A DNA stretch of 64,000 nucleotides. It comes from Kiritimatiellia bacterium (GTDB lineage: Bacteria > Verrucomicrobiota > Kiritimatiellia > CAIKKV01 > CAITUY01). Below the pieces are notes generated by a model. That model searched no databases, was not told the origin of the DNA, and saw nothing but the letters and a program-made list of their open reading frames with translations. Position 1 is the first letter of the stretch. The number at the start of each line of letters is the position of its first letter. The stretch covers positions 20 through 64,019 of the forward strand of contig JBBQNS010000005.1 of assembly GCA_038330175.1 (NCBI GenBank). The letters run 5' to 3'. A program made the translations under genes and the position numbers. This document shows, in pieces, positions 15,886 to 58,467 of the stretch.

Positions 15886-16668
15886 CTATAACGCATGAAT
15901 AAAATCCTTGAACTGCAAAATGCGGTCGCTGTTGCTCCGATTAAATAGCAAATGCTCAAAATCTTTTTTCTTTTTCGGGAGGTTGACGGATTCTAGTTTC
16001 GTGTTGATCGCTGCTTTCAGTACCCGCAGATTGCTGATTCCGCATTTTGTAGTGAGGAATCCATAATCTGGCTTTGCCTGTCCCAGTAGAAAAAGAGCAT
16101 CGTAAAAATCGCGCCCTTTCGCCCTGCTCAAAAGTGCGGAAAGCTTCATCGCGCACAGCACGGCGTCCGTCGGCACGGGGAAGGAGAAGACAAGACCGCA
16201 TCCCTTGATCAATGCCAGATCCTTGGCATACGCCATTCCCTGATCCTGCGCCTCAAGCTTGACCATGAACCGCTCGTCCTTGTGGCCTGACAAACCAAGC
16301 TCAAATAAAAGCTCGGGGAAAATGAGGCTCTTGCGGAAGGCTGTCAGTCGGCTGCTCTCCTGCGCCTTCAGAACGGCGTTGAAGCCGCTACGGACAAGAA
16401 AAGACGACACCTCCTGTGACATCTGATCAAAGTCTTCAGTGGAAAAATCTTTGCAGTCAAAATCCAAGTCCTCGGAAAATCGGTCAATACCCTTGACTAA
16501 CCGCAGGTTCGTTCCACCGATAAACACAAGGCGCCGGATATAAGAAGTCGTGGACAAGAAATCAAGAATCAGCAACTGAATATATTCCTTCAGGATATAC
16601 TTTTGAAAACGTGCATCACCCGAAAGGGCTTGCGGATAGAACGATGTGATTGCAGAGAGTGGCATCAT
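15886..16668 (-). CDS. abiEii: nucleotidyltransferase toxin, AbiEii/AbiGii family (type IV TA / abortive infection)
   Basis: 260-aa ORF with AbiEii-like N-terminal NTase region (RLVFIGGTNLRL...DLDFD); 4-bp overlap with upstream antitoxin gene. Confidence 0.7.
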   Translation of the reverse strand: MMPLSAITSFYPQALSGDARFQKYILKEYIQLLILDFLSTTSYIRRLVFIGGTNLRLVKGIDRFSEDLDFDCKDFSTEDFDQMSQEVSSFLVRSGFNAVLKAQESSRLTAFRKSLIFPELLFELGLSGHKDERFMVKLEAQDQGMAYAKDLALIKGCGLVFSFPVPTDAVLCAMKLSALLSRAKGRDFYDALFLLGQAKPDYGFLTTKCGISNLRVLKAAINTKLESVNLPKKKKDFEHLLFNRSNSDRILQFKDFIHAL

Positions 16669-17300
16669 AACCGATAGACCTTTTTCAGCAGACGAACCCT
16701 TTGTTCAAGGGCATGCGAGTTAAACTTTTCAAGAAACGCCTCCAGGCGGTCAAGGCGGAGGTCGCTATGCAGGAGCTCGTCGTCTAGTCGCAACTGTTCA
16801 ATCTCCGCCTCTGTATCATAGAAAGGATAGAGGTAAAGGAGATCCAGAACAGCCTTCTCGCGCGTTGCGAAAGAGAGCGAACGCCCGTCCATGACCTGGC
16901 GCGGCTCATACCCGAACATTAGCCCGGGCTTCACGCTCTTGTACGAGAAATCCCCAAAGGCGTTTGTGAAGCTCGCCGTCTTGAGCGACGTCACGCTCGT
17001 GATCTGCACGACGGCTTCAGGGATGAGCCCGTAAAACGACAGCGCGGTATGCAAGCTGATATAGGACGGACTGTACATCTTTCCTGCGAAATAAGAGGCT
17101 GCGTCTGGCACCGCCTTGTACTCCGGAAACGTGTAAACTCCCTGACGTAGCCGAATAAGATAGCCCTTCCGTGTCCAGCGAACCATATTGTTGCGGTCAA
17201 ACTCGGGCTGCCATGCATACACCTGATGGATGTTGAAGCAGGCAAGGTTAAACATCTTCGCTCTAAAGGTCGTCCAGTTCATAATATTTCTAAAACGCAT
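16665..17300 (-). CDS. abiEi: AbiEi-family antitoxin / transcriptional regulator
   Basis: 211-aa ORF immediately upstream of and overlapping abiEii; AbiEi-like N-terminal wHTH region; probable true start MNWTTF at 17282. Confidence 0.65.
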   Translation of the reverse strand: MRFRNIMNWTTFRAKMFNLACFNIHQVYAWQPEFDRNNMVRWTRKGYLIRLRQGVYTFPEYKAVPDAASYFAGKMYSPSYISLHTALSFYGLIPEAVVQITSVTSLKTASFTNAFGDFSYKSVKPGLMFGYEPRQVMDGRSLSFATREKAVLDLLYLYPFYDTEAEIEQLRLDDELLHSDLRLDRLEAFLEKFNSHALEQRVRLLKKVYRL

Positions 17301-17377
17301 TAAATATGATGCATCTCAGAAATAAAAACAATCTTTGTTTTTTAGCTTTGCCGCTTATTGAAGCAGGACAACGCGCC

Positions 17378-17818
17378 TCACTGGGCCGACAAGGCGCTAT
17401 TCACGGCGGAAACCAAGGTGGCGGCATCCGTCACCCCGGAAAACTTCCTTAAAGGCTTTCCATTCTTGAAGATAATCAGTGCGGGAATGCTTTGGATGTT
17501 CAATTCACTCGCCACGTCACGGGCGGTCGCCACATTCAGCCTCGCCACGATCGCCTGAGTGTGGAGTTGATTCGCCACTGCCTCAACGATCGGTTCCTGG
17601 ATCTTGCAATCTCCGCACCAGGGAGCCCAGAAATCCACCAGAATCACTCCTTGCGCAATCTGCGAGTTGAACCCGGCGTCGTCCATAATCAGGACTCTTG
17701 AAGGCATAGCGTCATTTTCATCGGACACGATTTCCTTTTTTCCGCATCCTGTCAAAAGGGAGACGCAAAATAACACGATTACCCCCTTTGCAAAGGGTCG
17801 CTTGATGCCCTTATACAT
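17378..17818 (-). CDS. thioredoxin-family lipoprotein
   Basis: lipobox LLTGC; thioredoxin active-site variant WAPWCGDCK; start MYKGIKR at 17818 (longer ORF to 17938 lacks support). Confidence 0.75.
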   Translation of the reverse strand: MYKGIKRPFAKGVIVLFCVSLLTGCGKKEIVSDENDAMPSRVLIMDDAGFNSQIAQGVILVDFWAPWCGDCKIQEPIVEAVANQLHTQAIVARLNVATARDVASELNIQSIPALIIFKNGKPLRKFSGVTDAATLVSAVNSALSAQ

Positions 17819-18359
17819 GGGAAGCCTCCTGCGCAGGGTTGCGTAGCTGCGCCGCGAATGTATCGAACTCGGCGGCAATGTCATGGGAGAGAATCGTCGC
17901 AACCTTCGAGGCCGATATCTCCTTGCCTTGAACATCAACCCGAACCTGAAGCGACCGGTTGAGCGCCTCGATCTCTGATTGCATCCGGCGGATTTTCAAG
18001 TGCGTGGCAACACGCGCCTCAACCTCTTCAAACTGAAACGGCTTGGTCACATAGTCTACCCCGCCCGCTGAAAACGCTCTGACTTTGTCCGAAACCTCGA
18101 TATTGGCGCTGATAAAAATCACGGGGATTTCCGCGAGCAGAGGGTCCGCCTTAAGTTCCGCACACACCGCATAGCCGTCCATCTCCGGCATGTTGGTATC
18201 CAGCAGAATAAGATCCGGCAGTTCACAGCGAGCCGCAGCAAGGGCCGTCTTCCCATCCGCCACGGGGCGGACTCGATGTCCCCTTTTATTGAGCATCTCG
18301 GCGAGCAGGTGGAGGTTGGCAGGATTATCATCGACAATCATAATGTCCGCATTTATCAT
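17811..18359 (-). CDS. response-regulator receiver domain protein, truncated paralogue of REC-HD-GYP gene (no output domain)
   Basis: 182 aa; REC domain ~80% identical to 53091-54173 and 54170-55288 products; C-terminal tail aligns with REC/HD-GYP linker then stops; 3' end overlaps thioredoxin start by 8 bp. Confidence 0.8.
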   Translation of the reverse strand: MINADIMIVDDNPANLHLLAEMLNKRGHRVRPVADGKTALAAARCELPDLILLDTNMPEMDGYAVCAELKADPLLAEIPVIFISANIEVSDKVRAFSAGGVDYVTKPFQFEEVEARVATHLKIRRMQSEIEALNRSLQVRVDVQGKEISASKVATILSHDIAAEFDTFAAQLRNPAQEASHV

Positions 18360-18510
18360 GACTCATGATCGCTCATTCTAGGGCATCTGCCAATCGGGGG
18401 AAGGAGCATAAATGCCTGCGAAGTACCTTAGAAGCCTGCCGAACACAGGCTGTCCGGCAAGGTCATTTACCGGGTAAAACAGGAGTTTACCTTATAGTCG
18501 CTTGAGATTT
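18340..18510. repeat. duplicated junction segment (kinase 3' end - conserved leader - RR 5' end); second copy at 27200-27620
   Basis: near-identical blocks: CTGCCAATCGGGGGA(A/T)GGAGCATAAATGCCTGCGAA (18389-18420 vs 27293-27324), AGGAGTTTACC..ATAG.CG.TTGAG (18481-18506 vs 27591-27616), GGTGGAGGTTGGCAG (18309-18322 vs 27209-27223). Confidence 0.75.
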
Positions 18511-19733
18511 ATGATTTCGTTGATCAGTTTCAGCAGATGCCCTCCCGCCTGGAGAATCTGGCCGATACTTTCCTTCTGCTCAGGTGTCGGCGCCGGAGAA
18601 ACGGTCTCCAACAACTGAGCGAAACCAAGGATGGCATCGAGCGGGGAACGAAGCTCATGGCTTATTTTGGACAGAAAATCCGAGGTGGCCCGATTGGCGC
18701 TCTCCGCCTCTTCCTTGGCGTTTTCCAACTCGACATTCTTCTCTTGCAGTACCTGGTCCAGGCGTTTGGACTCCGTGATGTCACGCGCGGCGGCAAACAC
18801 ACCCTGTAATCTTCGATCCCGATCATAGAAGGTCGTCGCATTGTAGGACACCACGGTCTCCTTACCGTCCCTGTTTCGCGCGGTGAGTTCGTAATTGGTG
18901 AGTTTCCCTCCGGCCAGAACCTGCTTGATACTCGCCTCGGCGCGTTCCGGATCGGTAAAATAGTTCTTGAACGGCGCGCCGATCAACTCGTCACGCGTAC
19001 ATCCGGTAAGCGCCTCCATCTGCTTGTTGATATCGGTGATGATGCCCCTCGGATCGGTGGTCATAATCGCGTCAATATTGGATTCAAAAAGGGAGCGCGT
19101 ATAGAATTGCTGGTCGCGGAGACGCTGATCGAGCCTCATCTTCTCCTCTTCGACCAACTTGCGTGCGGCAAGAACGTGAGCGAGCTCCACGTTCTGACTG
19201 ACGGCATTCTCGTAGGTCGAGAGGAGCAGATCGAGGATATGGAGCCGGTCGGCGGTAACCAAGAACTGTTTTCCGGCGAAACAGATGTTGATTCCCATTT
19301 CGCTGGCGGGATCCTTGCGCATCTCCTGGTTTGCGATCACGTTCTGCACCCGCGCCAGAAGGGCATGGCCTTCGTAAGGCTTGCAGATGAAGTTGTTCGC
19401 CCCTGATTCGAGCCCGCGGATCACATCCTGCGGGTCGGAGAGCGAGGTGAGTAGAATCACCGGCAGGTGGCAAAACTGCGGGTCGGCGCGTAACGCCTTG
19501 CAGAGCGCATAGCCGTCCATCTCGGGCATTACGATGTCCGAAATGACCACATCGACTGCGCTCGCCTTGGCGGCCGCGAGCCCCTCCTTGCCGTTGGTCG
19601 CGGTGACGACCGAGTAGCCCGCCTCCTCGAGGAGAAACCGTAACTGCTCGCGTTGCGTTGGGCTGTCCTCGACGATCATGATCCTCACCGGTTGCGGTGT
19701 CGGGTTCGGGTTCGTATTCATGTGATTTTCCAT
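18492..19733 (-). CDS. REC-PAS-HisKA protein lacking HATPase_c domain (truncated kinase paralogue)
   Basis: 413 aa; N-terminal REC (VRIMIVEDS...D), PAS and H-box ISHELRSPL; residues ~200-413 are ~88% identical to residues ~475-690 of hybrid kinase 55285-58467; ORF stops (LKLINEIINLKRL*) exactly where paralogue continues into ATPase domain (LKLINEILDLAKIESGKL). Confidence 0.85.
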   Translation of the reverse strand: MENHMNTNPNPTPQPVRIMIVEDSPTQREQLRFLLEEAGYSVVTATNGKEGLAAAKASAVDVVISDIVMPEMDGYALCKALRADPQFCHLPVILLTSLSDPQDVIRGLESGANNFICKPYEGHALLARVQNVIANQEMRKDPASEMGINICFAGKQFLVTADRLHILDLLLSTYENAVSQNVELAHVLAARKLVEEEKMRLDQRLRDQQFYTRSLFESNIDAIMTTDPRGIITDINKQMEALTGCTRDELIGAPFKNYFTDPERAEASIKQVLAGGKLTNYELTARNRDGKETVVSYNATTFYDRDRRLQGVFAAARDITESKRLDQVLQEKNVELENAKEEAESANRATSDFLSKISHELRSPLDAILGFAQLLETVSPAPTPEQKESIGQILQAGGHLLKLINEIINLKRL

Positions 19734-19745
19734 ATCCTTTCGCTA

Positions 19746-20792
19746 CTAACGTTCATGCTGCACCGCAGCAATCAGAAGGTCGGTTATTTTCTGCGGCGGT
19801 AACACGAAACGGGCTGCACCCAGCCGGATCGCTTCGGCCGGCATGCCGAAAACCACGCAGCTTGCTTCGTCCTGGGCGACGGTGAGCGCACCCTGGTCGG
19901 CCAAGAGTTTGAGTTCCTCGGCGCCGTCCCGCCCCATGCCGGTCAGCAGCACACCGATTGCCCGGCGGCCAAACCGTTCTGCCACCGACCGGAACAAGAC
20001 TGCGACGGATGGCCGCAACCCGTATAGTGGCGCGTCCCAGGTCGCTTGCAGCTCGCCCGCCAGGCCGACCCGCAAGTGGTGGTCGTCGGGAGCAACGTAG
20101 ACGTGACCGGGAAGCGGCATCTCCCCACCACGCGCAACATGCACCGGCAAACTGGAGGCGGTGGCGAGCCATGCAGCAAAACCGCCTGTGAAACCCGGGG
20201 AAATGTGCTGGACGACAAGAATCGGAGCCGGGAAGGTGCACGGCAGGCCGGACAATATCTGAAAGATAACCGGCGGGCCACCCGTGGAGGCGCCGATGGC
20301 AACAACGGCGGTATCATGGCGAATGAAGTCGGGTAACAAGGGCGCGACAACAACCGGTGCCGCACCGGGGGTTCGATTCCAGCGCCGCACCACCTTGACC
20401 TCGGACATCAACTTGACCGTTTTAATCAACTCGGCGGTTTGAACTTCGGCAGCAGGATCGCCAAAACCCATGGGCTTCTTCAGCACGGCGAGAGCGCCGG
20501 CCTCCAGAGTGCGCATGGCCGTATGACTGTCGCCAAAACTCGGGCTACCCGTGCAGATGACGATGGGCACCGGATGGGTCGCCATGATCTGACGCGTCGC
20601 CTCGAAGCCGTCCATCTTCGGCATGTGGATGTCCATGAGGATGAGGTTGGGCTGGCACTGTTGCAGGTACGCCACAGCCTCCTCGCCGGTCGAAGCGGTG
20701 GCCATGACCCGTATATCTGGATCGCAGCTGAGGACATAAACCAAGTAATCCAACACCACGCGGGAATCCTCAACTATCAGCACGTCAATCAT
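19746..20792 (-). CDS. cheB: chemotaxis response regulator protein-glutamate methylesterase
   Basis: 348 aa; N-terminal REC, C-terminal CheB methylesterase (GASTGGP, catalytic region); 4-bp overlap with cheA. Confidence 0.9.
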   Translation of the reverse strand: MIDVLIVEDSRVVLDYLVYVLSCDPDIRVMATASTGEEAVAYLQQCQPNLILMDIHMPKMDGFEATRQIMATHPVPIVICTGSPSFGDSHTAMRTLEAGALAVLKKPMGFGDPAAEVQTAELIKTVKLMSEVKVVRRWNRTPGAAPVVVAPLLPDFIRHDTAVVAIGASTGGPPVIFQILSGLPCTFPAPILVVQHISPGFTGGFAAWLATASSLPVHVARGGEMPLPGHVYVAPDDHHLRVGLAGELQATWDAPLYGLRPSVAVLFRSVAERFGRRAIGVLLTGMGRDGAEELKLLADQGALTVAQDEASCVVFGMPAEAIRLGAARFVLPPQKITDLLIAAVQHER

Positions 20793-23014
20793 AGCAGCCT
20801 CCGGATGATTTCAATGAGGTTGCTCTGGTCAAAATCGCTTTTGACAATATAGGCGTTGGCTCCGACCTCGATGCCATATTCGCGGTCTTTCTGTGAGCCG
20901 AGCGCCGTTACCAGCAACACTGGCAACTCGCTAAGTTTTTTGTCGGCGCGGATCCTGGCGGTAAGCTCGAACCCGTTCAGGCGCGGCATGTCCACATCCG
21001 AGACCAGAAGGTCGAACGGCTCGGTCTTGAGTCTGGTCAGGGCGTCCATCCCATCCACGGTGGCCACCACCTCGTACCCGGCACCCTCGAGAATGGTCTT
21101 AACCAAGGTCCGGGCGGTGATGGAGTCCTCGGCGATCAGCAGCCGCCCTTTGCGTTTCTCCGCAGAACCATTTACCGAGCCCACCGGCCCCGGAACACCG
21201 GCCGTGGTGGCCGATTCCACCAGATCAAGGGCATCGAGGATGGGAATGACGGCGCCACTGCCCGTGATGGCGGCGGCGGCGACGTTGCGAACCTGCGCGA
21301 GTTGCCGACCGAGGCTTTTGACCATCACCTCCTGCTCTCCCAGCACGTCGTCAACGAGAAAGGCAACCTGTCGGTCTGCAGCGCGGATCACCACCACCGG
21401 ACGGGCCGCTCCGTTGGAACGTCCGTCCGGCCCGGAGAGCGCAAGAATGTCCCTTAGGCATACGAGCGACACGGCGACACCACCTAACGCGATGGTCTGG
21501 CGGCTCTCGACCGTCTTGATTTCGTCGGCTTTGACGCGCGCCACGCGAACCACGCTGGCGGTCGGAATGGCAAAACGTTTGCCCGCCACGGCCACAAACA
21601 CTCCACGGAAGGTCGCCAGCGACAACGGCACGAGAAGCCGAAATACCGTTCCGGCGCCGGGTGTCGAGGTTACCGAAACCGTACCACCGAGTTTCTCGAC
21701 CTTCTCGCGCACGATGGCCAGGCCCAATCCCCGACCGGAGAGATCAGTGATGATCGGGCTCGTAGAAAGGCCGGAGTTAAACACGAGTCCGGTTACCTCG
21801 GCATCGGTCAGGTGGACGGCTTCATCGGTCGAGACAAACCCGAGTCGAACGGCGGCCTTCCTGACCCTCGCGGACTCGATCCCGACACCGTCGTCACCTA
21901 CCGTGATCTCGACCCGGTTCCCGGGGACTGTCGTCACCGTGAACGTGACCACCCCGCGACTGGGCTTGCCATGCACCTGGCGTCCTTCCGGCTTTTCGAG
22001 GCCGTGATCGACCGCGTTGCGCAGCAGGTGGATGAGTGGATCCTTGAGTTCATCGAGGACACGCCGGTCGATCTCGATGTCTTCCCCGTGAATGATGAGG
22101 TCGGCCTCTTTGTTTTGCTCCCGCGCCAGATCGCGCACCAGCTTGGGAAAGGCAGAGAGAAGGTATGAGCAGGGAAGGAGCAACACCTTCTTCATATCCT
22201 CAAGAAGGCTGTCCGCGATGGCACCAAGCGCGCGGGCATCCTGATGCGCGGACCGGGCCAGGGTGCGGAGCGAGTTCTCGAGTGCCCTCGTGTAGAGCAA
22301 CTCGGACTCGATCAGTTCGCTTCCGGTGGGCGCGCCTTTCTGGATGCGGCGCTGCCTTGCGGCCAACCGAACGCGACCCTGGTTCCAGTGGCTGACACTG
22401 GCCGCGAGGTCGCGAATCTCGGTGGCGTGTCCACTCGCAGTAATCCTGGCGCCCACCAGTTCTTCGGCTTCGCGCAGAATGGCGCCGAGTTTCTGGGTGG
22501 AGACACGGACGGTCTCCAGCGTAGCCGCAGGCGTCGCCGCTTCACTGGCGACACGGAATTGAGGCACACTTGTTTCCGCCGGAGATTCCGGTTTCTTGGC
22601 TGGGGTGATCCGAACGATTCTACGGAGCGACTGAAGCGTCTGGTTTTCCTTCCCTTGGGCTTCCGGAGATGACGTTTCACCTGGCTTCGCACACAGCACT
22701 GCCAGCACATCGAGCGCAGGATGGATGACGTCGAGTAGCGTCGTGGATAGCGCGAGTTCTTCACGCTTCATGGCCGCAAAGATGCTCTCGAGTTCCATGC
22801 AGAACGCCTCCACGCCGGGGAGACTCACTGAGCGCGCCGCGCCCTTAAGCGAATGGGCCTCCCGGAAGATGCGCTCGACGATGGGCACGCGCTCTACGTC
22901 GCTGGCACGTTCGACAGCCACGAGCCCCGCAGCGATGGCCGCGATGTGTTCAGCCGCTTCGCCTTGGAAGATCTCACGCAATCGCGCCAGGAATTGTTCT
23001 TTCTTTAGGTCCAT
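20789..23014 (-). CDS. cheA: hybrid CheA histidine kinase with C-terminal receiver domain (WspE-like)
   Basis: 741 aa; N-terminal HPt (HSLKGAARS), HATPase_c, CheW-like domain, C-terminal REC (LLIAEDS...D). Confidence 0.9.
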   Translation of the reverse strand: MDLKKEQFLARLREIFQGEAAEHIAAIAAGLVAVERASDVERVPIVERIFREAHSLKGAARSVSLPGVEAFCMELESIFAAMKREELALSTTLLDVIHPALDVLAVLCAKPGETSSPEAQGKENQTLQSLRRIVRITPAKKPESPAETSVPQFRVASEAATPAATLETVRVSTQKLGAILREAEELVGARITASGHATEIRDLAASVSHWNQGRVRLAARQRRIQKGAPTGSELIESELLYTRALENSLRTLARSAHQDARALGAIADSLLEDMKKVLLLPCSYLLSAFPKLVRDLAREQNKEADLIIHGEDIEIDRRVLDELKDPLIHLLRNAVDHGLEKPEGRQVHGKPSRGVVTFTVTTVPGNRVEITVGDDGVGIESARVRKAAVRLGFVSTDEAVHLTDAEVTGLVFNSGLSTSPIITDLSGRGLGLAIVREKVEKLGGTVSVTSTPGAGTVFRLLVPLSLATFRGVFVAVAGKRFAIPTASVVRVARVKADEIKTVESRQTIALGGVAVSLVCLRDILALSGPDGRSNGAARPVVVIRAADRQVAFLVDDVLGEQEVMVKSLGRQLAQVRNVAAAAITGSGAVIPILDALDLVESATTAGVPGPVGSVNGSAEKRKGRLLIAEDSITARTLVKTILEGAGYEVVATVDGMDALTRLKTEPFDLLVSDVDMPRLNGFELTARIRADKKLSELPVLLVTALGSQKDREYGIEVGANAYIVKSDFDQSNLIEIIRRLL

Positions 23015-23039
23015 GTGACTCTCCGGTGCGCTCCGTGCG

Positions 23040-24656
23040 TCACCCCTCCACCTTCTGCCGCTCGACTAACACCTTCAGCTTCCCGCCTAGCTCTTTGAGG
23101 TTCCGCGCCGACGTTTCGAGTTGCTGGGTTCCTGCCATATTCTGGGTGGTCGCTTGCCGGATGTTGGCTATGGCCGAGGCGATCTGATCCATGCCGACGA
23201 GTTGCTGCTGACTGGACGCGGCGATCTGGATGGCGGCCTGCGCGGCCTCGCCGACGCTGCCCGTGAGCACGCGGATCGACTCGCCCGCTTCGGTGGCCTG
23301 TTTAACCCCGGCCGCCACCGCCTTGGTCCCTTGTTCGGTGGCCATGACTGCGGCGCTGGTGGCCTTCTGCACCTCCATCAGGATGGTGCGTACTTGGGTT
23401 GTAGCCTGCCGCGATTGCTCAGCCAGACTCTTGACTTCCTGCGCCACCACTGCGAAACCCTTGCCAAACTCGCCCGCGCGGGTCGCCTCAATGGCCGCGT
23501 TGACCGCCAGCAGGTTCGACTGCTCGGCGAGGTCGTTGACCGTCGCGATGATCTCGCCGATGGTCTGGCCCTGCTCACTCAGCCGCACGACGCTTTCGGC
23601 GATTTCCTCCATCTGCTCACGAATGAGGTTCATGCCTTCGAGCGTCTCGGTAACGGCTTTGCGGCCGGTTTCGGACACAGCCGCGACCTTCTGAGCACTC
23701 TCCTGAACATTCTTTGCCTTCTGGTTGGACAAATGGGCGGTCTGCTTCACCTCTTCGGCGGTGGTACTGGTCTCGCTAACGGCGGTGGCAGTCTCGGCCG
23801 CACCTGCGGCAACTTGGGAAACGGTAGCGAGAATCTCCGCCGAGGACGAGGCGAGAACACCGGCTCCTTGGCGAAGTTCAAGATTCATATCGCGCAGGTT
23901 CTCGATCATGATCCGCAGCGCCCGCTGCAGCGCGCCGACTTCGTCCGACCGGTCGTCGGATTCAACCCGAACGGTCAGGTCGCCTGCGGCGACCCGCTCA
24001 GCCACACCGGTGATCGCGCCGATAGGCTTTGCAATGGAGCGCGTCAGTACCACCCCCCCACCCACCAATGTTACGATCGAAAGCAAGGTTCCCAGCACGA
24101 TGAGCAGTTTCAAATACTTCACACTGGATGCGGACTCGTTTTGGCGCTTGTCCAGGAGCTTCTGCTCGTCGACCTGCATCTGACTGACCGCAGCACGGAT
24201 CTCGCCCATAACGCTCTTTCCCCTGCCGGAACGAATGATCTCCAAAGCGGCCTGGAGGTCTTTTGTTCGCCTGATCTCGATCCCCTCGTCGAGAATCTTG
24301 AACCTGGCTGCCACCAACGGCTCGATGGAATTAAGGCGATTTTGCTGCACAGGGTTGTCGGCGGTCAAGTCCCTGACGCTGACAAAGGATTTTCTGAAAT
24401 CCTCCTTCCCCTTGAGATACGGCTCGAGATACAAGTCGTCACCGGTGATGATGAATCCACGGTTACCTGTCTCGGCGTTCAGGAGATCGATAATGACACC
24501 GTCGAGCGCGTGGATCACCGCGTGCGTACGCATCCCCCAATTATTATCTTCGGTATTGGTTTGAAACCCCTTGTACGTGCAGACAGCCACAATGGCGAAT
24601 GTCACAACGGCGACCGCAAGTGCGGTAACGATCTTGGTTCCGATTTTCCAGCGCAT
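23040..24656 (-). CDS. methyl-accepting chemotaxis protein (two TM, periplasmic sensor, HAMP)
   Basis: 538 aa; TM1 near N-terminus, TM2 ~res 185-205, HAMP then MCP signalling domain with conserved hairpin region ([38 protein letters not shown]). Confidence 0.9.
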
Positions 24657-24684
24657 GAGCCTTCTCCTTTTTGATTTTATCCGT

Positions 24685-25290
24685 TCACTGAGTTACCTGT
24701 TTGTTGCCCTTGAGGCCGGTGTCGTTGAGCAAGCGACCCCCGTCGAGTATGGCCAGCCTCTGGCCGGTGATACCCTTAAGAAACTTTTCGCGAATTCCGG
24801 TGAGCGTGGGCAATCCCACCTGCAACGTCGCCGCCGTCACTGAACGCACGCCTTCAATGGAGTCCGCGAGCAGACCCAGTTCGTCTTCGCCACGGCTGAG
24901 AACAATAACCCGGTTGAGTTCGGTGAGGCCTCTGACCGGCAGTTCGAAAAACTGGCGTAGGTCGACAATCGCCAGGATCTGGCCGTGTAGGTTCATGACA
25001 CCGGCGATAAAGGGCGGGGTGCAGGGCACGGCCGTAAGGTCTCGTAGCTGGCAGACTTCGCGGACATACCGGCTCTCGACGCCGTAGGTTTCGTCGGCCA
25101 GCGAAAAGGCCAGGATATCCAAACGCGCGGTGTCGTCCGGCTTCGACGGCGGCTTGGCCGCCGCTCGCGCCCGGGCCTCGAGAATGCGTTTCGCTGCCTC
25201 CGGACCGCAGCCGATGTTCCCCGCCATCGCGCTCGTGGCGGACGCCAATCGGCGATGGATGGCGTCCCAGTCTATGACGCGTGGCTGCAT
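24685..25290 (-). CDS. cheW: CheW-like coupling protein
   Basis: 201 aa with CheW domain; within che operon. Confidence 0.75.
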
Positions 25291-26699
25291 TATTGTACTC
25301 CTATGTAATCACTCATTGCGCGGACAGACTCTAAGAGCCGGCCACAGGTCATGCCGTCGGATTCGGGCAGAACCTCGTTCTGGCTCCGGGCCGCGAGGAG
25401 TTGAAGGGCAACGGCGAGGTGGCGCTTGGATTCTTTTTGTTTGCCGAGCCGATGGTAGAGCGCGCCCAACGCATGGTGGGCAAGGATAAAGTCCTGGTCG
25501 AGGTAGAGGACTTTGCCGAATGCTTCAACGGCGTCCTGAAGCCGACCGAGTTCGTGGAAGATTGTCGCGCGCAGGAAGTGGGCGGCGGGTTTGGTAGGCT
25601 CGGCCTTGGCGGCCCGCTCACACCACGTGAGCGCCTCGTCGAGTCTGCCCTGATTGGCGCAGAGGCGTGCCAGCACCAGAGGGTCTTCACGGGTTGACCC
25701 GGTGCCTGGCATGATCAGCGCGATGGGCGGAGTCGGCGTGATCGGCACAACCGGCACAGGCATCGCTGGCGCGACGAAATCGGCGGGCGCGGGCTCCGGG
25801 AAAGCGGGTGCGGGGGAGGCAAGTCCCGGCCAGGATTCGCCTCGGCTCGGTCGTGTTCCCTTGCGGCAGACAATGACGCCATCGATATTCTCCACGGCAA
25901 ACATCGGGAACAGAGAAGCACTGGCTTCGGCGGGATTGACAATCAGACAGCCACCGTCAACGAGAGAACGGTGCAGCGCCGCCACGACTCGCCGCTGGTG
26001 GTCGGGAGTGAAGTACATGATGACGTTTCGGCAGAAGATCACGTCCATGGCATTGGTATGGTTGTGGAGCGACGGGTAAGCGTCTTCGGCCAGGTTGAGG
26101 AAGGTGAAGTGGATTAGCTTTTTGAGGCCCGGCTCGATCATGTACTTCTTGTCCGGTGCGGGAGAGAAGAACCTGTCGCGCAGTCCTGCTTCGGTGCCTC
26201 GGAACGACCATTCGGAGTAGACGCCCGCCTCGGCCTTGGCGAGGAACTTGGGATTGATGTCAGTTGCCAGGATCGAAACGTTCCAATCGCGCAGGTTGGG
26301 AATGATGCGCGTACAGCTCATCGCGAGTGAGTACGCCTCCTCTCCGGTGCAGCACCCGGCGCTCCACAAACGCAGGGTCCGGCCCATGTCGGTGCGTTTC
26401 GCCACGAGCGGGGGCAGGATCTCCCGCTCAAGCAGCTCGAAGCTCTCCGGGTTCCGGAAGAAGTAGGTCTCGCCGATGGTCAGGTGACTGGCGAGCGTCT
26501 CAATTTGCCGGACGGTGAGTTCTCGGGTCGTGAGCCAGCGTGCGCAGTCGTCGAAAGACTCGAAGCCGAGTTCCGGGCCGGCCGTCTTGATGCCGCACGC
26601 CAAGTCGGGCCAGCGCTCTTCGGGGAAATGCAAGCCCATCCGCTCGGCGATGAAGCCGCTCACCTTGCTGAGGACCGCTCTTTCGCTTACGGGTGGCAT
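25290..26699 (-). CDS. cheR: chemotaxis protein methyltransferase CheR with C-terminal TPR repeats (WspC-like)
   Basis: 469 aa; CheR SAM-binding motifs (LRLWSAGCCTGEEAYSLAM), Pro-rich linker, C-terminal TPR. Confidence 0.88.
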   Translation of the reverse strand: MPPVSERAVLSKVSGFIAERMGLHFPEERWPDLACGIKTAGPELGFESFDDCARWLTTRELTVRQIETLASHLTIGETYFFRNPESFELLEREILPPLVAKRTDMGRTLRLWSAGCCTGEEAYSLAMSCTRIIPNLRDWNVSILATDINPKFLAKAEAGVYSEWSFRGTEAGLRDRFFSPAPDKKYMIEPGLKKLIHFTFLNLAEDAYPSLHNHTNAMDVIFCRNVIMYFTPDHQRRVVAALHRSLVDGGCLIVNPAEASASLFPMFAVENIDGVIVCRKGTRPSRGESWPGLASPAPAFPEPAPADFVAPAMPVPVVPITPTPPIALIMPGTGSTREDPLVLARLCANQGRLDEALTWCERAAKAEPTKPAAHFLRATIFHELGRLQDAVEAFGKVLYLDQDFILAHHALGALYHRLGKQKESKRHLAVALQLLAARSQNEVLPESDGMTCGRLLESVRAMSDYIGVQ

Positions 26700-26702
26700 G
26701 GG

Positions 26703-27170
26703 TCAGCCGACTCCTTTCTCGGGTTCGCCGGCAGGGGAGCTCAAGGCGCGATCAATCGCCGTCTCCTCTTCGACGGAGAGCAGGCGATTGAGGTCGTGGA
26801 TCAGAACAAGTCCATCTTCGAGCTTGATCGCACCGGCAACGAACTCAAGCCGTGGCAGGATCTCACCCGCAGGAATGGTGTTCTCGTCCGTGGTCTCGAC
26901 CACCCCTTTCGTTTCATCAACCAACAGAGAGACGGTTCGCTTCCCGGTCGTGGCAACCATAAGATGATCGGACAAACGAATATCACGCGGCGGGTGGTTG
27001 AACCGTCCCCGCAGGTTGATGACGGGAATGACCTCGCCGCCGAGATCGATGATGCCCATGACGAGCGGGGGCGCCTTGGGAAGCGGCGTAATGGCAACGA
27101 CCCGAATGACGCGCCGCACGCAGGCGAGATCCAGCGCGTAACGCTGGTCGTCCAGAGAGAAGACCGCCAT
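26703..27170 (-). CDS. cheW: CheW-like coupling protein (first gene of che operon)
   Basis: CheW domain begins MAVFSLDDQRYALDL; the longer ORF to 27206 (MAEMISMKTKRHM...) is encoded by a remnant of a response-regulator 5' end. Confidence 0.75.
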   Translation of the reverse strand: MAVFSLDDQRYALDLACVRRVIRVVAITPLPKAPPLVMGIIDLGGEVIPVINLRGRFNHPPRDIRLSDHLMVATTGKRTVSLLVDETKGVVETTDENTIPAGEILPRLEFVAGAIKLEDGLVLIHDLNRLLSVEEETAIDRALSSPAGEPEKGVG

Positions 27171-27199
27171 ATGTCGTTTTGTTTTCATTGAGATCATCT

Positions 27200-27620
27200 C
27201 GGCCAACAGGTGGAGGTTGGCAGTGCAGGGTTATCAGTAATTATCAGGATATCCGCATCTATTCTTGTTTAGTCTTCCTCTTTCCAGAGCCTCTGCCAAT
27301 CGGGGGATGGAGCATAAATGCCTGCGAATTTCCTTAGTCCCTTACGACCTGAATCAATCGAATTATGGTCATGATTTGGGCAAGAAGAGAATTTGAACAG
27401 CCTCCTTCGCCAGTAGGTTACGGCGAGCCGAGGAAGCTCAGTAGAGTAGAGAAGGGGAAATAATTGCGCCTGCGGTGTACTCGCCGCTGGCGCCTTTGCG
27501 TGCTTCGTGTGCTTCTGTTAAATTTCTTCTTCTTAGTTCCGGCTACGCTGGATTAGGAATGCCGCGTAAGGTTATTCGACGTTGAAAATAGGAGTTTACC
27601 CCATAGCCGTTTGAGTTCCT
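27200..27620. repeat. second copy of kinase-3'/leader/RR-5' junction, interrupted by a partial family-B MITE (27440-27525)
   Basis: see 18340-18510; RR start remnant DNPA-LPTSTCWPR (frameshifted) at 27207-27262; kinase C-terminus remnant ...LKRLW with stop codon mutated (TAA->TGG). Confidence 0.7.
27440..27525. repeat. partial, inverted copy of MITE-like repeat family B
   Basis: reverse complement (GAAGCACGCAAAGGCGCCAGCGGCGAGTACACCGCAGGCGCAATTATTT) matches 51711-51770 almost exactly; one terminus only, with 7-bp internal duplication. Confidence 0.6.
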
Positions 27621-51665: not shown

Positions 51666-51683
51666 AATGGCTCAATCCGGCAT

Positions 51684-54173: not shown

Positions 54174-55288
54174 CTGAGGGGTAATGTGAACCAGAAGGTG
54201 CTCCCTTTGCCAACTTCACTGTTGACGCCGATCTGCCCGGAGTGGGCCTCAACGGCCAGTTTGCAAAAGGTCAGGCCGAGCCCACAGGAGTGCTTGGCCC
54301 CGCCCTGGTCTCCCGCAACCTGGCCAAACTTCTCAAATATTTTCTGATGGTCTTCAGGAGCAATACCGCGTCCGGTGTCCGTTACCTCCACCCGCACCGC
54401 TTCTCCCGACCCGGTAACGCTCACGACGACCTCGGATCCTCCGGGCGCATACTTGACTGCGTTATTGATTAAATTCACCAGGACACGGTGAAGCAGTCCC
54501 TTATCCGCCGTAACAGAAACGGGTGCGCCTTGCACCTGAATGAGAATTTTCCGGAAGTCGGCCAGCGGCGCAATATCCGCCGCCGCTTCTCCCGCCATGG
54601 CGAGCAGATCGCAGGGCTCGCAAGTGACCGGCATCTGCCCGGCTTCGAGGCGACTGACATCAAGTAAGGCGTTGCACATATCGGTCAATTCCTTCGCCGA
54701 CACCTGCCCTAGCTTCCAAAATCGGACCGTATCCTCATCTTTCCCTTCCAGTAAGGGCCGCAGCAGATCCAAACAGCAGGCAACCGCCATCAACGGAGAG
54801 CGCATGTCGTGGACAATCATATGGGTGAGATTATCGCGCAGTATCGCCAGTTTACTCAAGCTTTCGAGGTTCTCCTTCAATAGCCGTTTCTGGCGACACA
54901 GCTCCAGATGGGTACACACGCGCGCTTCAACCTCCTCAAACTGAAACGGCTTGGTCACATAGTCAACTCCGCCGGCGGAAAAGGCCTTAACTTTGTCCAA
55001 TACCTCCGTATTGGCGCTGATGAAGATGACGGGGATTTCAGCAAGCCGTGGGTCGGCTTTAAGCTCTGCACACACCGCATACCCATCCATCTCCGGCATG
55101 TTGATGTCGAGCAGGATAAGATCCGGCGGTTGGCGCCGTGCCGCCTGCAGGGCCAGTTTACCACTCGGAACCGGTCTCACTTTGTGTCCCCGCTTCTTGA
55201 GAAGCCCGGCCAACAACTGGAGATTAGCTGGCGTATCATCGACTACGAGAATATCCGCCGTTTCAGAATGCTCTGTGTTGTCACTCAT
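54170..55288 (-). CDS. REC-HisKA-HATPase_c hybrid histidine kinase (receiver N-terminal)
   Basis: 372 aa; REC ~93% identical to REC of 53091-54173; H-box HDMRSPL; N/G1/G2 boxes. Confidence 0.88.
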   Translation of the reverse strand: MSDNTEHSETADILVVDDTPANLQLLAGLLKKRGHKVRPVPSGKLALQAARRQPPDLILLDINMPEMDGYAVCAELKADPRLAEIPVIFISANTEVLDKVKAFSAGGVDYVTKPFQFEEVEARVCTHLELCRQKRLLKENLESLSKLAILRDNLTHMIVHDMRSPLMAVACCLDLLRPLLEGKDEDTVRFWKLGQVSAKELTDMCNALLDVSRLEAGQMPVTCEPCDLLAMAGEAAADIAPLADFRKILIQVQGAPVSVTADKGLLHRVLVNLINNAVKYAPGGSEVVVSVTGSGEAVRVEVTDTGRGIAPEDHQKIFEKFGQVAGDQGGAKHSCGLGLTFCKLAVEAHSGQIGVNSEVGKGSTFWFTLPLR

Positions 55289-58200
55289 GGCACATTTCCT
55301 GACTGACCCAGTAAATCAAGCAATTTCTGATAGTCAAAGTTTGAGGCCAATACACGCAATCCATTCGCAACTTCATGATCGCCGTGATCCACCTGGTTCA
55401 GCAACTCCATGATCCTGTCCAGGTCCGCGGCCAGGGTCGCCTCGCGAAGTTTTTCAACTAAAGCCCCAGGAAGAACTGCCAGAGCCTCCTGATTCAGGTG
55501 GCCATTGTCGAGAGACAGCTCCAGCGCCATGTTCAGTGTGTCCATAAACTCATCGACCTTGATGGGCTTGGTCAGATAACCGAAGAACCCTGCACTCAGG
55601 CCTTTCTGGATGTCGTGCGGCATGGCATTAGCGCTTAGGGCGATGACGGGAATATTCGCCGTGGCCGGATCCGTTAGAAGGATTTTCAGGGCCTCGATGC
55701 CACTGATGTCGGGTAGATTGATGTCCATCAGGATCACATCCGGCAGGTTCTTTTGCGCCAGCTTGACCCCGAGAATCCCGTTCACGGCCGTGAGCATTTT
55801 TATATCAGGTCGGCGTTCAATGAGCTGCTCGACCAGCTTCATATTGGCCGGATTATCCTCCACATAAAGCAGGCTGCGTATTTTTGTGCCCTTAGGGACT
55901 CGCGTCGGCACCGGGGCACTGGGTTTGCCGCTTGCAACCGCAAATTGTGATCGAGCAGCGACCATCAATTCACACCAGAATTCGCTCCCCTTGCCTACCG
56001 TGCTTTCCACGCCGACAACGCCCCCCATCAACTCGATCAGTTGCTTCGCCACCACCAGGCCAATACCGGTCCCTTCCTCGCCGCTGGACTCCTGGCCCAG
56101 TCGGTTGAACGGCTGGAACAAGAGCGCCAGCTTTTCCGGAGGCAATCCGAGACCCGTATCCTTGATGCTAATGCGGATACGCCCCGGGCTGTTCGCCACA
56201 CACATCACCTCGACGCTCCCATGGGGACGATTGTATTTGATCGCGTTGGACAGAAAGTTGATCAAAATCTGTTTCAGGCGGGTTCGGTCTGCATGAACAT
56301 AGAAGGGAACGTCAAACTGAGGAAAGATCATTTGGAGGCCTCGTTTTTGCGCCTGCCCTTCGACCATATTTTTACATTCGCTCATGATTTCCTCTAACGA
56401 AACCGACTCCAACGACATGGAGAGCTTTCCAGATTCAATCTTCGCGAGATCCAGAATCTCGTTGATCAGTTTCAATAGATGCCATCCAGCCTGGAGGATC
56501 TGATCGATACTTTCCTTCTGGTTCGGCGTCGGTGCCTGGGAGGCGGTCCCCATCAACTGCGCGAAACCGAGGATTGCATTCAGTGGGGAGCGAAGCTCAT
56601 GGCTCATGCTCGACAGGAAATCCGACTTCGCCCGGTTGGCGCGCTCCGCCTCGACCATAGCGGCCTGCAATTGGACATTCCTCTCCTGCAGCACCTGATC
56701 CAGCCGCTTGCGCTCCGTGACGTCGCGCGCCGCCGCGAAGACCCCCTGGAGTCTCCGGTCCCGGTCATAGAAGGTCGTTGCGTTGTAGGAGACCACGGTC
56801 TCCTTGCCATCGCGGCTTCGCGCCGTCAGCTCGTAGTTGGTGAGCTTTCCTTCGGCCAACACCTGCTTGATGCTCGCCTCCGCCTGTTCCGGATCGGTAA
56901 ACGTATTCTTGAAAGGTGCGCCAATCAGTTCATCGCGTGTGCACCCGGAGAGCGCCTCCATCTGCTTGTTGACGTCCGTAATGATGCCCTGAGGATCGGT
57001 GGTCATGATGGCGTCGATATTGGACTCAAAAAGAGAGCGGGTATAGAACTGTTGCTCCCGCAGCCGCTGATCGAGTTTCATCCGCTCTTCCTCGATTTGT
57101 TTACGCGCCGTGTTATCGGTACCAATCAGCAGATAACCAATGATCAGGCTCTGCGCATCGCGCAACGCCGTGACGGACACCACAGCGGGAAACCGGCTCC
57201 CGTCCTTGCGGATATAGGTCAGCTCGTAGATGTCCTCGATCCCGCGTGAGGCCTTAAACACGAGGGCTTCAAAACCGGGTGTAATCGGCGTTCCGAGCTC
57301 GACGCTCAATGTCTTGGCGCGCGCAATCACTTCCTTTGGATCGGAAATGTCGGCGGGTGTGATCTTATTCATCACCTCGGCCGCCGTGTAGCCCAGCATG
57401 CGCTCGGCGCCAACGTTAAAGATCTGGATTACGCCCTTCGCGTCCGTCGCAATACTCGAGAAGTTCGCGCTGTTGAAAATCGCGCTTTGCAACGCCCCGG
57501 CTCTCAAAAGCGCCTCCTCCGCCTGCTTGCGTGCGGTGTTGTCGGTACCGATCAGCAGATAGCCGATGATGACCTCCTTCGCGTCGCGCAGGGCTGTGAC
57601 GGACACCACCGCCGGGAAGCGGCTACCGTCCTTGCGGATGTAGGTCAGCTCGTAGATATCCTCGATGCCGCGCGAGGCCTTGAACACCAGGGCCTCGAAG
57701 CCGGGCGTAATCGGGGTGGCGAGTTCGACGGAAAGGGCCTTGGCGCGTGCAATTACTTCCTGCGGATCGGAAATGTCGGCCGGCGTGATCTTGTTCATCA
57801 CTTCGGCGGCGGTGTAGCCGAGCATGCGCTCGGCGCCAACGTTGAAGATCTGGATGACGCCCTTCGCGTCCGTGGCGATGCTCGAGAAGTTGGTGCTATT
57901 GAAAATAGCGCTCTGCAGGGCGCCTGCCCTACGCAGAGCCTCTTCCGCCTGCTTGCGCGCGGTGTTGTCGGTACCGATTAGCAGATAGCCGATGATGACG
58001 TTCTGCTCGTCGCGCAGCGCCGTAACCGACACTACCGCCGGCAAGCGGAGGCCATCCTTGCGGATGTAGGTCAGCTCGTAAATGTCCTCGATCCCGCGCG
58101 AGGCCTTGTAGACCAGAGACTCGAACCCCGGCGCAATCGGGGTCGCGAACTCGATACTCAATGTCTTACCGCGCGCGATCACTTCCAGCGGATCAGAAGC

Positions 58201-58467
58201 GTCGGCCGGAGTCATTTTGCCAAGTACGTCGGAGACCGCGTAGCCCAGCATGCGTTCGGCACCGACATTGAAGAGTTGAATGATCCCCTTCGCATCCGTG
58301 GCGATGCTCGAGAAAGTGGCGCTGTTGACAATCGCGCGTTGCAGATCCTTCGATGTAATCAAGGCCTCTTGTCGGAGGCCTTCCGTGACGACATCCGTTT
58401 TTACTGCATTCCTTGCGGAATCGACTGATTTGTGTGTGATCTTCGGCATGCTTTTATTTTCCAGCAT
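55285..58467 (-). CDS. cytoplasmic multi-PAS hybrid sensor histidine kinase (4xPAS-HisKA-HATPase_c-REC-C-terminal extension)
   Basis: 1060 aa; three near-identical tandem ~141-aa PAS repeats, fourth PAS, H-box SHELRSPL, ATPase, REC, ~90-aa C-terminal tail without HPt HxxKG motif. Confidence 0.9.
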   Translation of the reverse strand: MLENKSMPKITHKSVDSARNAVKTDVVTEGLRQEALITSKDLQRAIVNSATFSSIATDAKGIIQLFNVGAERMLGYAVSDVLGKMTPADASDPLEVIARGKTLSIEFATPIAPGFESLVYKASRGIEDIYELTYIRKDGLRLPAVVSVTALRDEQNVIIGYLLIGTDNTARKQAEEALRRAGALQSAIFNSTNFSSIATDAKGVIQIFNVGAERMLGYTAAEVMNKITPADISDPQEVIARAKALSVELATPITPGFEALVFKASRGIEDIYELTYIRKDGSRFPAVVSVTALRDAKEVIIGYLLIGTDNTARKQAEEALLRAGALQSAIFNSANFSSIATDAKGVIQIFNVGAERMLGYTAAEVMNKITPADISDPKEVIARAKTLSVELGTPITPGFEALVFKASRGIEDIYELTYIRKDGSRFPAVVSVTALRDAQSLIIGYLLIGTDNTARKQIEEERMKLDQRLREQQFYTRSLFESNIDAIMTTDPQGIITDVNKQMEALSGCTRDELIGAPFKNTFTDPEQAEASIKQVLAEGKLTNYELTARSRDGKETVVSYNATTFYDRDRRLQGVFAAARDVTERKRLDQVLQERNVQLQAAMVEAERANRAKSDFLSSMSHELRSPLNAILGFAQLMGTASQAPTPNQKESIDQILQAGWHLLKLINEILDLAKIESGKLSMSLESVSLEEIMSECKNMVEGQAQKRGLQMIFPQFDVPFYVHADRTRLKQILINFLSNAIKYNRPHGSVEVMCVANSPGRIRISIKDTGLGLPPEKLALLFQPFNRLGQESSGEEGTGIGLVVAKQLIELMGGVVGVESTVGKGSEFWCELMVAARSQFAVASGKPSAPVPTRVPKGTKIRSLLYVEDNPANMKLVEQLIERRPDIKMLTAVNGILGVKLAQKNLPDVILMDINLPDISGIEALKILLTDPATANIPVIALSANAMPHDIQKGLSAGFFGYLTKPIKVDEFMDTLNMALELSLDNGHLNQEALAVLPGALVEKLREATLAADLDRIMELLNQVDHGDHEVANGLRVLASNFDYQKLLDLLGQSGNVP
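57105..58370. repeat. 3 x 423-bp tandem direct repeat inside hybrid kinase gene (PAS-domain triplication)
   Basis: unit starts GCGYGYGGTGTTRTCGGTACCRATYAGCAGATARCC at ~57106, 57529, 57952; units 2 and 3 nearly identical at DNA level. Confidence 0.8.

Follow-up and report, generated by a model that had tools for sequence, protein, structure and literature searches.

An open reading frame (ORF) of 413 codons on the reverse strand of contig JBBQNS010000005.1, from a Kiritimatiellia bacterium (assembly GCA_038330175.1), was analysed together with its surroundings, a stretch of 64,000 nucleotides (nt) referred to here as the window. This ORF is, very probably, a three-part mosaic produced by illegitimate recombination. 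Its first 184 codons come from a response regulator gene of a che operon; the part that follows is a PAS-HisKA cassette of the kind carried by a family of hybrid sensor kinases; and its last codons and stop are provided by a segment, named S, of which a second copy lies elsewhere in the window. The truncation of the kinase part would then be recombinational, and not the outcome of a stop-codon mutation in a kinase gene. The product is a REC-PAS-DHp protein (DHp, dimerization and histidine phosphotransfer domain) that lacks the ATP-binding catalytic domain. An initial annotation, made from the DNA letters and their translations, had drawn attention to the truncated kinase part, but had missed the upstream junction (junction 1), the chimeric nature of the 5′ part, and the fact that the neighbouring receiver gene, REC182, is also devoid of an output domain. 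The coordinates of all these features are given in Table 1.

The downstream junction (junction 2) is where the kinase part ends. The 413-amino acid (aa) product and a full-length paralogue encoded in the window, a 1060-aa hybrid kinase, share the stretch ...QILQAG(G/W)HLLKLINEI, as had been read initially in the two translations; the 1060-aa kinase then continues with LDLAKIESGKL into its HATPase_c domain, while the shorter protein reads INLKRL and stops. For every kinase of the family, the homology runs out at 18504-18513, four codons ahead of the stop. Those four codons, K-R-L together with the overlap before it, and the TAA stop (18492-18494) are S sequence. The second copy of S starts at the same point (CTCAAGCGACTATAAGGTAAACTCCT versus CTCAAACGGCTATGGGGTAAACTCCT), leaving a 3-nt overlap, CTC, between kinase homology and S, which fits illegitimate recombination. 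From junction 2 onwards, S reads CTCAAGCGACTATAAGGTAAACTCCTGTTTTAC... at this locus and CTCAAACGGCTATGGGGTAAACTCCTATTTTCA... near 27615 (read downwards); between the CTC and the bases just before GGTAAACTCCT, 13 of 17 positions match the second copy. The motif AGGAGTTTACC is present at both 18481 and 27590, and three matches to it with no more than one mismatch were found, the expected number being 0.54. When kinase residues 678-1060 were used in a tblastn search of positions 16500-18520, no remnant of an ATPase domain, a receiver or an HPt domain was found downstream of the stop. Since there is neither kinase homology beyond the stop nor an ATPase remnant, the truncation is a recombination junction, and a simple nonsense mutation was ruled out.

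These results bear out most of what had been proposed for this end of the ORF. The truncation had been placed at the ATPase boundary, and the HisKA domain indeed extends to profile position 63 of 66, the cut falling where DHp helix alpha-2 ends naturally. The breakpoint had been taken for a recombination junction, with no point nonsense mutation, and had been said to coincide with the start of a segment duplicated elsewhere near a miniature inverted-repeat transposable element (MITE); the duplicated segment is S, and a MITE-like repeat does lie within its second copy. The pairwise DNA alignment suggested as a check was run: similarity reaches 18514, four codons short of the ORF stop, and does not break off well before its end.

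Pfam placed a receiver domain (Response_reg) at aa 18-130 of the 413-aa protein, with D66 as phospho-acceptor, a PAS domain at aa 213-321 (~18771-19097), and a HisKA/DHp domain at aa 351-413 (18495-18683; profile positions 3-63 of 66, E 2.4e-14) in which the H-box histidine, H359, is present within SHELRSPL. Between the receiver and the cassette, aa 131-184 make up a beta-hairpin plus helix extension, followed by a coiled-coil linker. No Pfam match to HATPase_c was obtained anywhere in the protein, and a C-terminal receiver was likewise absent. Residues D66, K118 and H359 are all kept. In the AlphaFold2 model, whose mean predicted local distance difference test (pLDDT) score was 83.9, a helix spanning residues 163-218 runs unbroken across junction 1; it is followed by the PAS domain (222-318) and by DHp helices alpha-1 (320-375) and alpha-2 (384-412), the latter reaching the C-terminus. 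The DHp helical hairpin is thus predicted to be complete despite the truncation. In alignments, the C-terminus of the protein coincides with the point at which DHp domains crystallised on their own come to an end, the ERS1 construct 4MT8 (...LDLSRL) being an example. A search of solved structures rendered 16 matches at E <= 1e-3, namely ordinary HisKA kinases, ERS1, RetS and DivL; neither Spo0B nor ChpT was among these 16. Because the catalytic domain is absent, the protein is unable to autophosphorylate: it has the DHp domain of HisKA sensor kinases of the functional-autokinase class, but not their C-terminal HATPase_c domain. Kinase-derived proteins without a catalytic domain are a kind already known, and this fusion is a variant of that kind.

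The ORF is regarded as a chimera because its N-terminal 184 codons belong to a different, syntenic response regulator gene of che operons. Residues 5-184, which carry the extension ...FFAGQRFFITADRLQILDLLLSTYENAV..., are 74-80% identical to the corresponding parts of three proteins of 253-295 aa (P0121, P0122 and P0124; homologues are designated by P numbers and contigs by L numbers). In the three cases in which the contigs were read (L001, L002-L004 and L007), the response regulator (236-267 aa) directly follows cheB, the gene order being that of the window. DNA homology of the 5′ part to L001, L002 and L007 (80-84% nt identity) stops at 19182/19201. The window gene therefore has both the module and the post-cheB position of this 'REC plus extension' family (P0121, P0122, P0123). 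The C-terminal coiled-coil tail of the 236-267-aa regulators (...LNEQLE.RVAERTAAL...) is missing here, the cassette standing in its place after codon 184, and at junction 1 the GC content drops from ~0.60 to ~0.55, GC3 falling as well. In a scan of the genome collection, the best matches to the N-terminal module showed 65-68% identity and came from metagenome-assembled genomes (MAGs) of Holophagales and Myxococcales.

The homology to foreign DNA extends over the whole che block, from 19182/19201 to 27169, with 70-84% nt identity and 61-74% aa identity to the clusters in L001, L002-L004 and L007. The contigs bearing these orthologous che clusters have a GC content of 0.68-0.74. The GC content of the che block is intermediate between this value and the 0.55 of the host, which is what an insert that is resident and ameliorating should show; the block was probably acquired horizontally from a high-GC lineage and is ameliorating in a host of ~55% GC. 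The cassette fragment and REC182, for their part, appear to be host-type sequence. Upstream of the che operon lies a YihY/BrkB-family gene (27930-28982, reverse strand), the best named relatives of which are found in Kiritimatiellia MAGs (52-58% aa identity), a hint that the host itself is Kiritimatiellia-like. Its closest relative, P0242 (74% aa identity), is in L095; a che-free version of the locus was sought by way of this gene but none was visible, L095 being too rearranged.

Table 1. Position and composition of the features discussed; coordinates are those of the window. GC3, GC content at third codon positions.
Feature	Position	Strand	GC	GC3	Content and remarks
Chimeric ORF, 413 aa	18492..19733	-			From ORF list, Pfam and AlphaFold2 model
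5′ part of chimera, codons 1-184	19182..19733	-	0.59	0.80	'REC plus extension' response regulator; aa and DNA homology to the che-cluster gene after cheB
Junction 1	19169..19181	-			aa 185-188 (AHVL); between response regulator homology (ends 19182) and cassette homology (starts 19168)
PAS + HisKA cassette fragment	18514..19168	-	0.545	0.68	Codons 189-409; paralogous to 56456-57095; GC and GC3 like those of resident genes
Junction 2	18504..18506	-			CTC microhomology; kinase homology ends and segment S starts
Segment S, left copy	18284..18506	-			ORF tail, 132-nt spacer, first ~25 codons of REC182
Segment S, right copy	27183..27615	-			Directly upstream of first che gene; degenerate fragment of the first ~25 codons of the REC gene
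REC182, 182 aa	17811..18359	-	0.55	0.63	Receiver + linker helix; 74% identity over 163 aa to N-terminus of REC-HD-GYP (53091-54173)
che block	19182..27169	-	0.61	0.69-0.76	cheW, cheR, cheW, MCP, cheA-REC, cheB, 5′ part of chimera; GC taken over 19.2-27.2 kb, GC3 over che genes
Near flanks of che block			0.51-0.52		
Full-length paralogue, 1060-aa hybrid kinase	55285..58467	-			PAS x4, HisKA, HATPase_c, REC; cassette region 56456-57095
Locus A, REC-HisKA-HATPase gene	54170-55288				Follows the 1060-aa kinase gene
Locus A, REC-HD-GYP gene	53091-54173				Follows the REC-HisKA-HATPase gene
Whole window			0.55		

Comparison of the window with itself by BLASTN aligned 18514-19153 with 56456-57095 over 640 nt, ungapped, with 80.0% identity (E 3e-165), and BLASTP aligned residues 190-413 of the 413-aa product with residues 454-677 of the 1060-aa kinase (83% over 224 aa, E 1e-129). 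The match itself had been correctly annotated, but the figures given for it (~210 aa at ~88% to kinase residues ~475-690) had not: over that range the identity is 84-86%, and the match ends at residue 677. The linker-PAS-HisKA stretch is, moreover, 78-84% identical over 217-218 aa in more than 60 hybrid kinases of ~700 aa attributed to Brocadiaceae, Verrucomicrobiota, Burkholderiales, Gallionella, Desulfobacteria, Methylumidiphilus and others, and an exhaustive search returned 5,824 cluster representatives at E <= 1e-30. The cassette would consist of the last PAS domain and the DHp domain of a resident hybrid kinase of the same family as the 1060-aa kinase; it retains the linker, PAS and HisKA of that family at >=70% aa identity, without the HATPase_c domain and the C-terminal receiver. 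An identity of 78-84% across very different phyla (P0027-P0120) is exceptional for the core of a sensor kinase, and suggests either extreme constraint or frequent horizontal transfer. A further peculiarity of the 1060-aa kinase is that its gene contains three tandem PAS-coding repeats of ~426 nt each (57098-58344, reverse strand; 77-81% nt identity), a lineage-specific internal triplication, since the closest homologue of the kinase (P0041, 703 aa) has a single such PAS.

The initial annotation held that the module had been duplicated from the 1060-aa kinase, and this claim did not survive. A recent intragenomic duplication, in which the PAS-HisKA segment of this kinase was pasted and truncated, would agree with the ungapped homology and with the protein comparison, in which the in-window kinase nominally ranks first among the matches of the truncated copy (83.9% aa identity, 380 bits). 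However, P0027 and P0041 are practically as close in protein (83.4% and 83.0%), and in DNA the P0041 gene, located in L005, is closer (82.5% nt identity, dS 0.75) than the in-window kinase gene (79.3%, dS 1.35); its alignment with the cassette, 82.6% identical over 655 nt, starts at 19168. In addition, the 1060-aa kinase is 88% identical in aa to P0041, and so nearer to it than to the truncated copy, and, of 200 neighbour-joining bootstraps, only 20 placed the two window copies together as sisters. Since homologues from elsewhere are as close as this kinase in protein, and closer than it in DNA, its role as the source of the copy is unsupported, and a recent duplication is very improbable; judged from their divergence, the two cassettes in the window would be old paralogues at best. 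There is just as little to recommend the idea that the gene exists in no cell and is an artefact of metagenomic assembly, with sequence from different genomes or loci linked within the conserved cassette. That the cassette is ~80% identical in many organisms, the GC step at junction 1, and the finding of the architecture on a single contig are all what such an artefact might produce, but neither junction lies in a shared repeat: junction 1 joins unrelated sequences, and junction 2 rests on an overlap of 3 nt. Further, on either side of the GC-rich block the DNA is low in GC and contains a diverged copy of S (~18% mismatches), an arrangement that an assembler would not be expected to create, and the intermediate GC content of the block is that of an ameliorating insert.

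The left copy of S is colinear with the right copy except for an extra ~230 nt present in the latter at 27338-27567. The two copies show 31 mismatches in 177 alignable nt (K = 0.20), plus several indels. A 37-nt core, TTCGCAGGCATTTATGCTCC[T/A]TCCCCCGATTGGCAGA, found at 18387-18423 and 27292-27328 (reverse strand), is identical at 36 of its 37 positions, the identity of the flanks being 78-81%. The core ends in TTGGCA, a -35-like hexamer, and the left copy of S carries the promoter-like arrangement TTGGCA-17-GATCAT. S is predicted to be the region upstream of the next gene, with a promoter in it, and the core may be a putative promoter or operator shared by the che operon and REC182. The MITE-like repeat, of ~215-230 nt, occurs in two copies of opposite orientation, one within 27338-27567, where it interrupts the right copy of S, and the other at ~51640-51860; it contains a short internal inverted repeat (AAGAAGAGAATT / AAATTTCTTCTT). 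The possibility that S is a known RNA element was discarded, as Rfam contained nothing relevant and the folding energies of S were no better than those of shuffled sequences (z -0.5 and +1.2). A 20-nt core of S compared with metagenome contigs gave one chance match only, inside an unrelated coding region.

The coding sequence of REC182 stops just where an HD domain would be expected, and no trace of such a domain was found downstream. Against its paralogues, REC182 has a dN/dS of 0.09-0.15; the corresponding dS, 1.2-1.5, is similar in size to the value for the two cassettes (1.35). It shares 73-79% identity with the receivers of the locus-A regulators. The P0041 gene is followed by a small receiver gene and then by a REC-HD-GYP gene. 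A reasonable history for these arrangements is that locus B, that is, the locus of the chimera and REC182, is what erosion has left of another resident operon of the 'hybrid kinase ... REC-HD-GYP' type, a paralogue of locus A, and that the foreign che block was spliced into it. A different derivation, in which locus B would be a collapsed operon of the L002 type (response regulator, CheB/R-PAS, hybrid kinase, REC-HD-GYP), was ruled out as orthology; the kinase and HD-GYP genes of L002 are only 29-41% identical to those of locus A and are without the cassette. Just downstream of locus B, in DNA of low GC content (0.47-0.54), lies an AbiEii/AbiEi toxin-antitoxin pair (15886-17300, reverse strand).

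Whether the chimera has been kept by selection was considered from the state of its coding sequence. The ORF is open across 1239 nt, its 413 codons containing no frameshift and no internal stop. The family conserves 126 cassette columns at a level of 95% or more, and 120 of these are kept, including SHELRSPL. A three-taxon Nei-Gojobori estimate for the truncated branch gave a dN of 0.054 and a dS of 0.49 (omega ~0.11). For the 5′ part, the comparison with L002 rendered a dN/dS of 0.24, the values for cheA, cheB and the MCP gene being 0.21-0.22. The boundary shared by junction 2 and S suggests that the junction was made when S was duplicated. In simulations allowing substitutions only, at ~0.10 substitutions per neutral site per lineage, a neutral ORF of 413 codons remained open in ~1.3% of cases (P ~0.013). 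With regard to the usual marks of a pseudogene, neither a frameshift, a stop nor a relaxed dN/dS was observed, while no match combined both halves of the chimera. Taken together, these values lead us to lean towards the view that the 413-aa product is retained under selection.

Known systems offer possible roles for such a product. In the Che3 system of Rhodospirillum centenum, CheA3 phosphorylates the receiver of CheS3, a REC-REC-PAS-kinase, and CheS3, not CheA3, then phosphorylates CheY3 (PMC3868531). The degenerate kinases PhyT, Spo0B and ChpT work as phosphotransferases (PMC5898713), and the DHp domain alone of EnvZ or NtrB is described as enough for phosphatase activity in PMC3510030, which cites Zhu et al. 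(2000, PNAS 97:7808). By analogy with these proteins, the 413-aa product may be a kinase-less phosphotransfer or phosphatase adaptor of the Che-like pathway, kept by selection, a reading we hold with slight preference; a specific phosphotransfer or phosphatase role is proposed more tentatively. The CheA-REC kinase would phosphorylate, or otherwise regulate, the receiver of the 413-aa protein at D66, as CheA3 does with CheS3. The dimeric DHp would then act on a cognate receiver, the candidates being REC182 or the receivers of locus A, either as a histidine phosphotransferase, following the logic of Spo0B, ChpT and PhyT, or as a DHp-only phosphatase, following that of EnvZ and NtrB. The PAS domain might modulate this DHp activity.

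The resemblance to these systems is only partial. Like the window gene, cheS3 lies in a che-like cluster that includes a CheA-REC hybrid and has a small receiver protein encoded nearby, and in both proteins N-terminal receiver sequence precedes a PAS domain and a histidine-phosphotransfer domain. However, CheS3 has two receivers and a complete autophosphorylating core of the HWE class, whereas the DHp of the window protein is of the HisKA class and is not followed by a catalytic domain. Orthology between the two could not be detected, and the likeness is one of architecture and context only; the window gene shares with the CheS3-like class the che cluster with CheA-REC and the REC and PAS domains ahead of the histidine-phosphotransfer domain, but not the HWE-class autokinase core. 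Spo0B, ChpT and PhyT are dimeric DHp-type bundles with a phosphorylatable histidine and no working ATP binding, which shuttle phosphoryl groups from receiver to receiver and are thought to be former kinases whose catalytic domain has degenerated. Spo0B and ChpT retain a degenerate catalytic-like domain, which is physically absent from the window protein. The latter also carries its own receiver and PAS domain. It has what a phosphotransferase would require: the histidine, a complete hairpin (as predicted), no ATP-binding domain, and an adjacent receiver gene. In EnvZ and NtrB, the DHp domains studied in isolation were engineered fragments of reduced activity, while the fragment in the window is natural and fused to REC and PAS domains. 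The window protein, like its whole family, has kept next to the histidine a motif of the H-E-x-x-S/T/N type (H359-E-L-R-S363).

Loss of the catalytic domain was also found in other che clusters, in a distant lineage whose CheA, CheB and MCP are only 28-43% identical to those of the window. The canonical gene after cheB in that lineage encodes a 678-aa REC-PAS-HisKA(cassette)-HATPase-REC protein and is followed by a REC-cyclase gene (P0077 in L094). The catalytic domain has been lost there independently at least three times. In P0020-22, HisKA runs directly into the C-terminal receiver as the result of an in-frame deletion. In P0014 (L089, from the Polyangiales MAG GCA_036382515.1) the end of HisKA is fused to a duplicated 3′-end of cheB plus the 5′-end of the gene itself: positions 3847-4373 and 5880-6406 of L089 match at 90%, which corresponds to a tandem-duplication junction exactly at the boundary between HisKA and the catalytic domain, and the end peptide is a duplicate of the CheB C-terminus followed by one of the first receiver of P0014 itself. 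In P0026/P0093, from two independent contigs, a stop occurs 11 residues past the module and, in addition, the histidine of the H box is changed to aspartate. Two cases are less certain: P0010 is split into an ORF ending at the DHp and a separate HATPase-REC ORF, possibly through an assembly error, and in P0118 it is the terminal receiver that has been lost. When the representative library was mined for kinase-less cases, mostly contig-cut or frameshifted fragments were obtained.

The window gene shares with the P0077-type genes the post-cheB position, the REC-PAS-HisKA order and a cassette of 71-78% aa identity. Its N-terminal receiver is, however, of another type (~31% identity) and its cassette is closer to those of hybrid kinases with PAS repeats (80-84%). 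The window gene reached the REC-PAS-HisKA order by a separate fusion. In several derivatives of the P0077 lineage, the catalytic domain was independently removed at the boundary at which the window gene is truncated. This hints that a REC-PAS-DHp protein encoded after cheB is a tolerated, perhaps favoured, product. A broader proposal, that the loss of the ATP-binding domain after cheB is recurrent and selected (by deletion, tandem duplication, stop or, here, fusion), the adaptor wiring an acquired Che-like pathway into a resident hybrid-kinase/HD-GYP (cyclic di-GMP) circuit by way of the 84%-identical DHp and near-identical receivers, is doubtful. The substitution W398G (QAGWHLL to QAGGHLL, codon 18540-18542, in DHp alpha-2) was also observed in the kinase-less P0014 and P0026/P0093, and N366D in P0014. 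The use of W398G as a signature of catalytic-domain loss was abandoned, as it is also present in the full-length P0052 and the independent events are too few.

Several considerations weigh against a selected adaptor. The three-taxon dN/dS estimate rests on a partly saturated dS, and the timing argument assumes that junction 2 and the duplication of S were one event and that S is neutral. The cassette deviates at 6 of the 126 highly conserved positions, the family median being 1; the changes include K350T, M357I, N366D and W398G, and could mean that constraint is beginning to relax. The protein forms a cluster with one member, on one contig, and no protein with both halves was found among 5.8 billion clusters; being a singleton, the chimera shows no direct sign of conservation. 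DHp-only phosphatase activity is reported as weak without the catalytic domain in PMC3510030. As to recurrence, some of the truncated homologues may be assembly errors (the split in P0010, a frameshift in P0015), and there is an ascertainment bias, the query having been REC-PAS-DHp, such that only proteins keeping those domains rank high. Some of these points are what a decaying relic would show, that is, a kinase fragment fused in frame by chance, whose ORF has stayed open merely for lack of time and whose product has no role or is not made. The singleton architecture and the deviations, with the conserved Trp398 and Lys350 among them, would fit such a relic, as would the output-less REC182 alongside, the scars of rearrangement around the locus (the duplicated S, the MITE-like repeat and the toxin-antitoxin pair) and the frameshifted or split versions in relatives, which could be plain decay. 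Yet the 1239 nt are intact although the copies of S have diverged to the extent indicated above, with several indels, an outcome rarely seen in the neutral simulations; omega is low, and the dN of the truncated branch is smaller than the ~0.10 expected from neutral change since the duplication of S alone. Both cuts, moreover, fall at domain boundaries, junction 1 preserves a continuous helix, and the three residues D66, K118 and H359 have all been kept. A relic is therefore considered unlikely, although it deserves more weight than any other alternative.

The DHp domain might instead form a heterodimer with the 1060-aa kinase, either blocking it in a dominant-negative manner or being phosphorylated by it in trans, and so couple the Che-like and hybrid-kinase/HD-GYP pathways. 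The product would in that case be functional too, but by another mechanism. A precedent exists in RetS, whose inhibition of GacS takes place through a DHp-DHp heterodimer formed in place of the homodimer interface (PMC8498467). Structures of RetS (6DK7/6DK8) were among the sequence matches of the 413-aa protein, and the window contains a full-length paralogue with DHp helices 84-86% identical, as well as locus-A receivers related to REC182 to the degree noted above. RetS, in contrast to the window protein, keeps its catalytic domain, and heterodimerisation here is conjecture. The two copies are old paralogues (dS 1.35), and paralogous kinases usually evolve insulation. The changes N366D, at the His+7 position, which we take to be a partner-specificity site, and W398G, in alpha-2, may also alter the interface. 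A role of this kind is improbable, and an adaptor acting on receivers is preferred. If functional, the chimera would be a natural, datable case of domain-level recombination rewiring two-component signalling, in which a foreign chemosensory operon was plugged into a host kinase family via its terminal response regulator, fused to a host PAS-DHp; the enzyme part would have been discarded and the phosphotransfer/recognition surface alone left. The independent losses in an unrelated che lineage would then suggest a general pattern, in that kinases acting downstream of CheA may not need an ATPase of their own. If non-functional, the locus is an ordinary rearrangement scar.

Other repeats were observed in the window. 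Palindromic repeats of ~70 nt, 85-97% identical, are present in intergenic DNA at 15550-15617, 47752-47792 and 58604-58673; their only matches in Rfam, sub-threshold and miRNA-like, are due to the hairpin. Two paralogous genes of ~1.9 kb, at 29221-31103 and 41798-43680 (680 and 718 aa), show 71% nt identity. Finally, comparison of the window with itself revealed a self-complementary stretch of ~200 nt at 8676-8871, with 76% identity to its own reverse complement.

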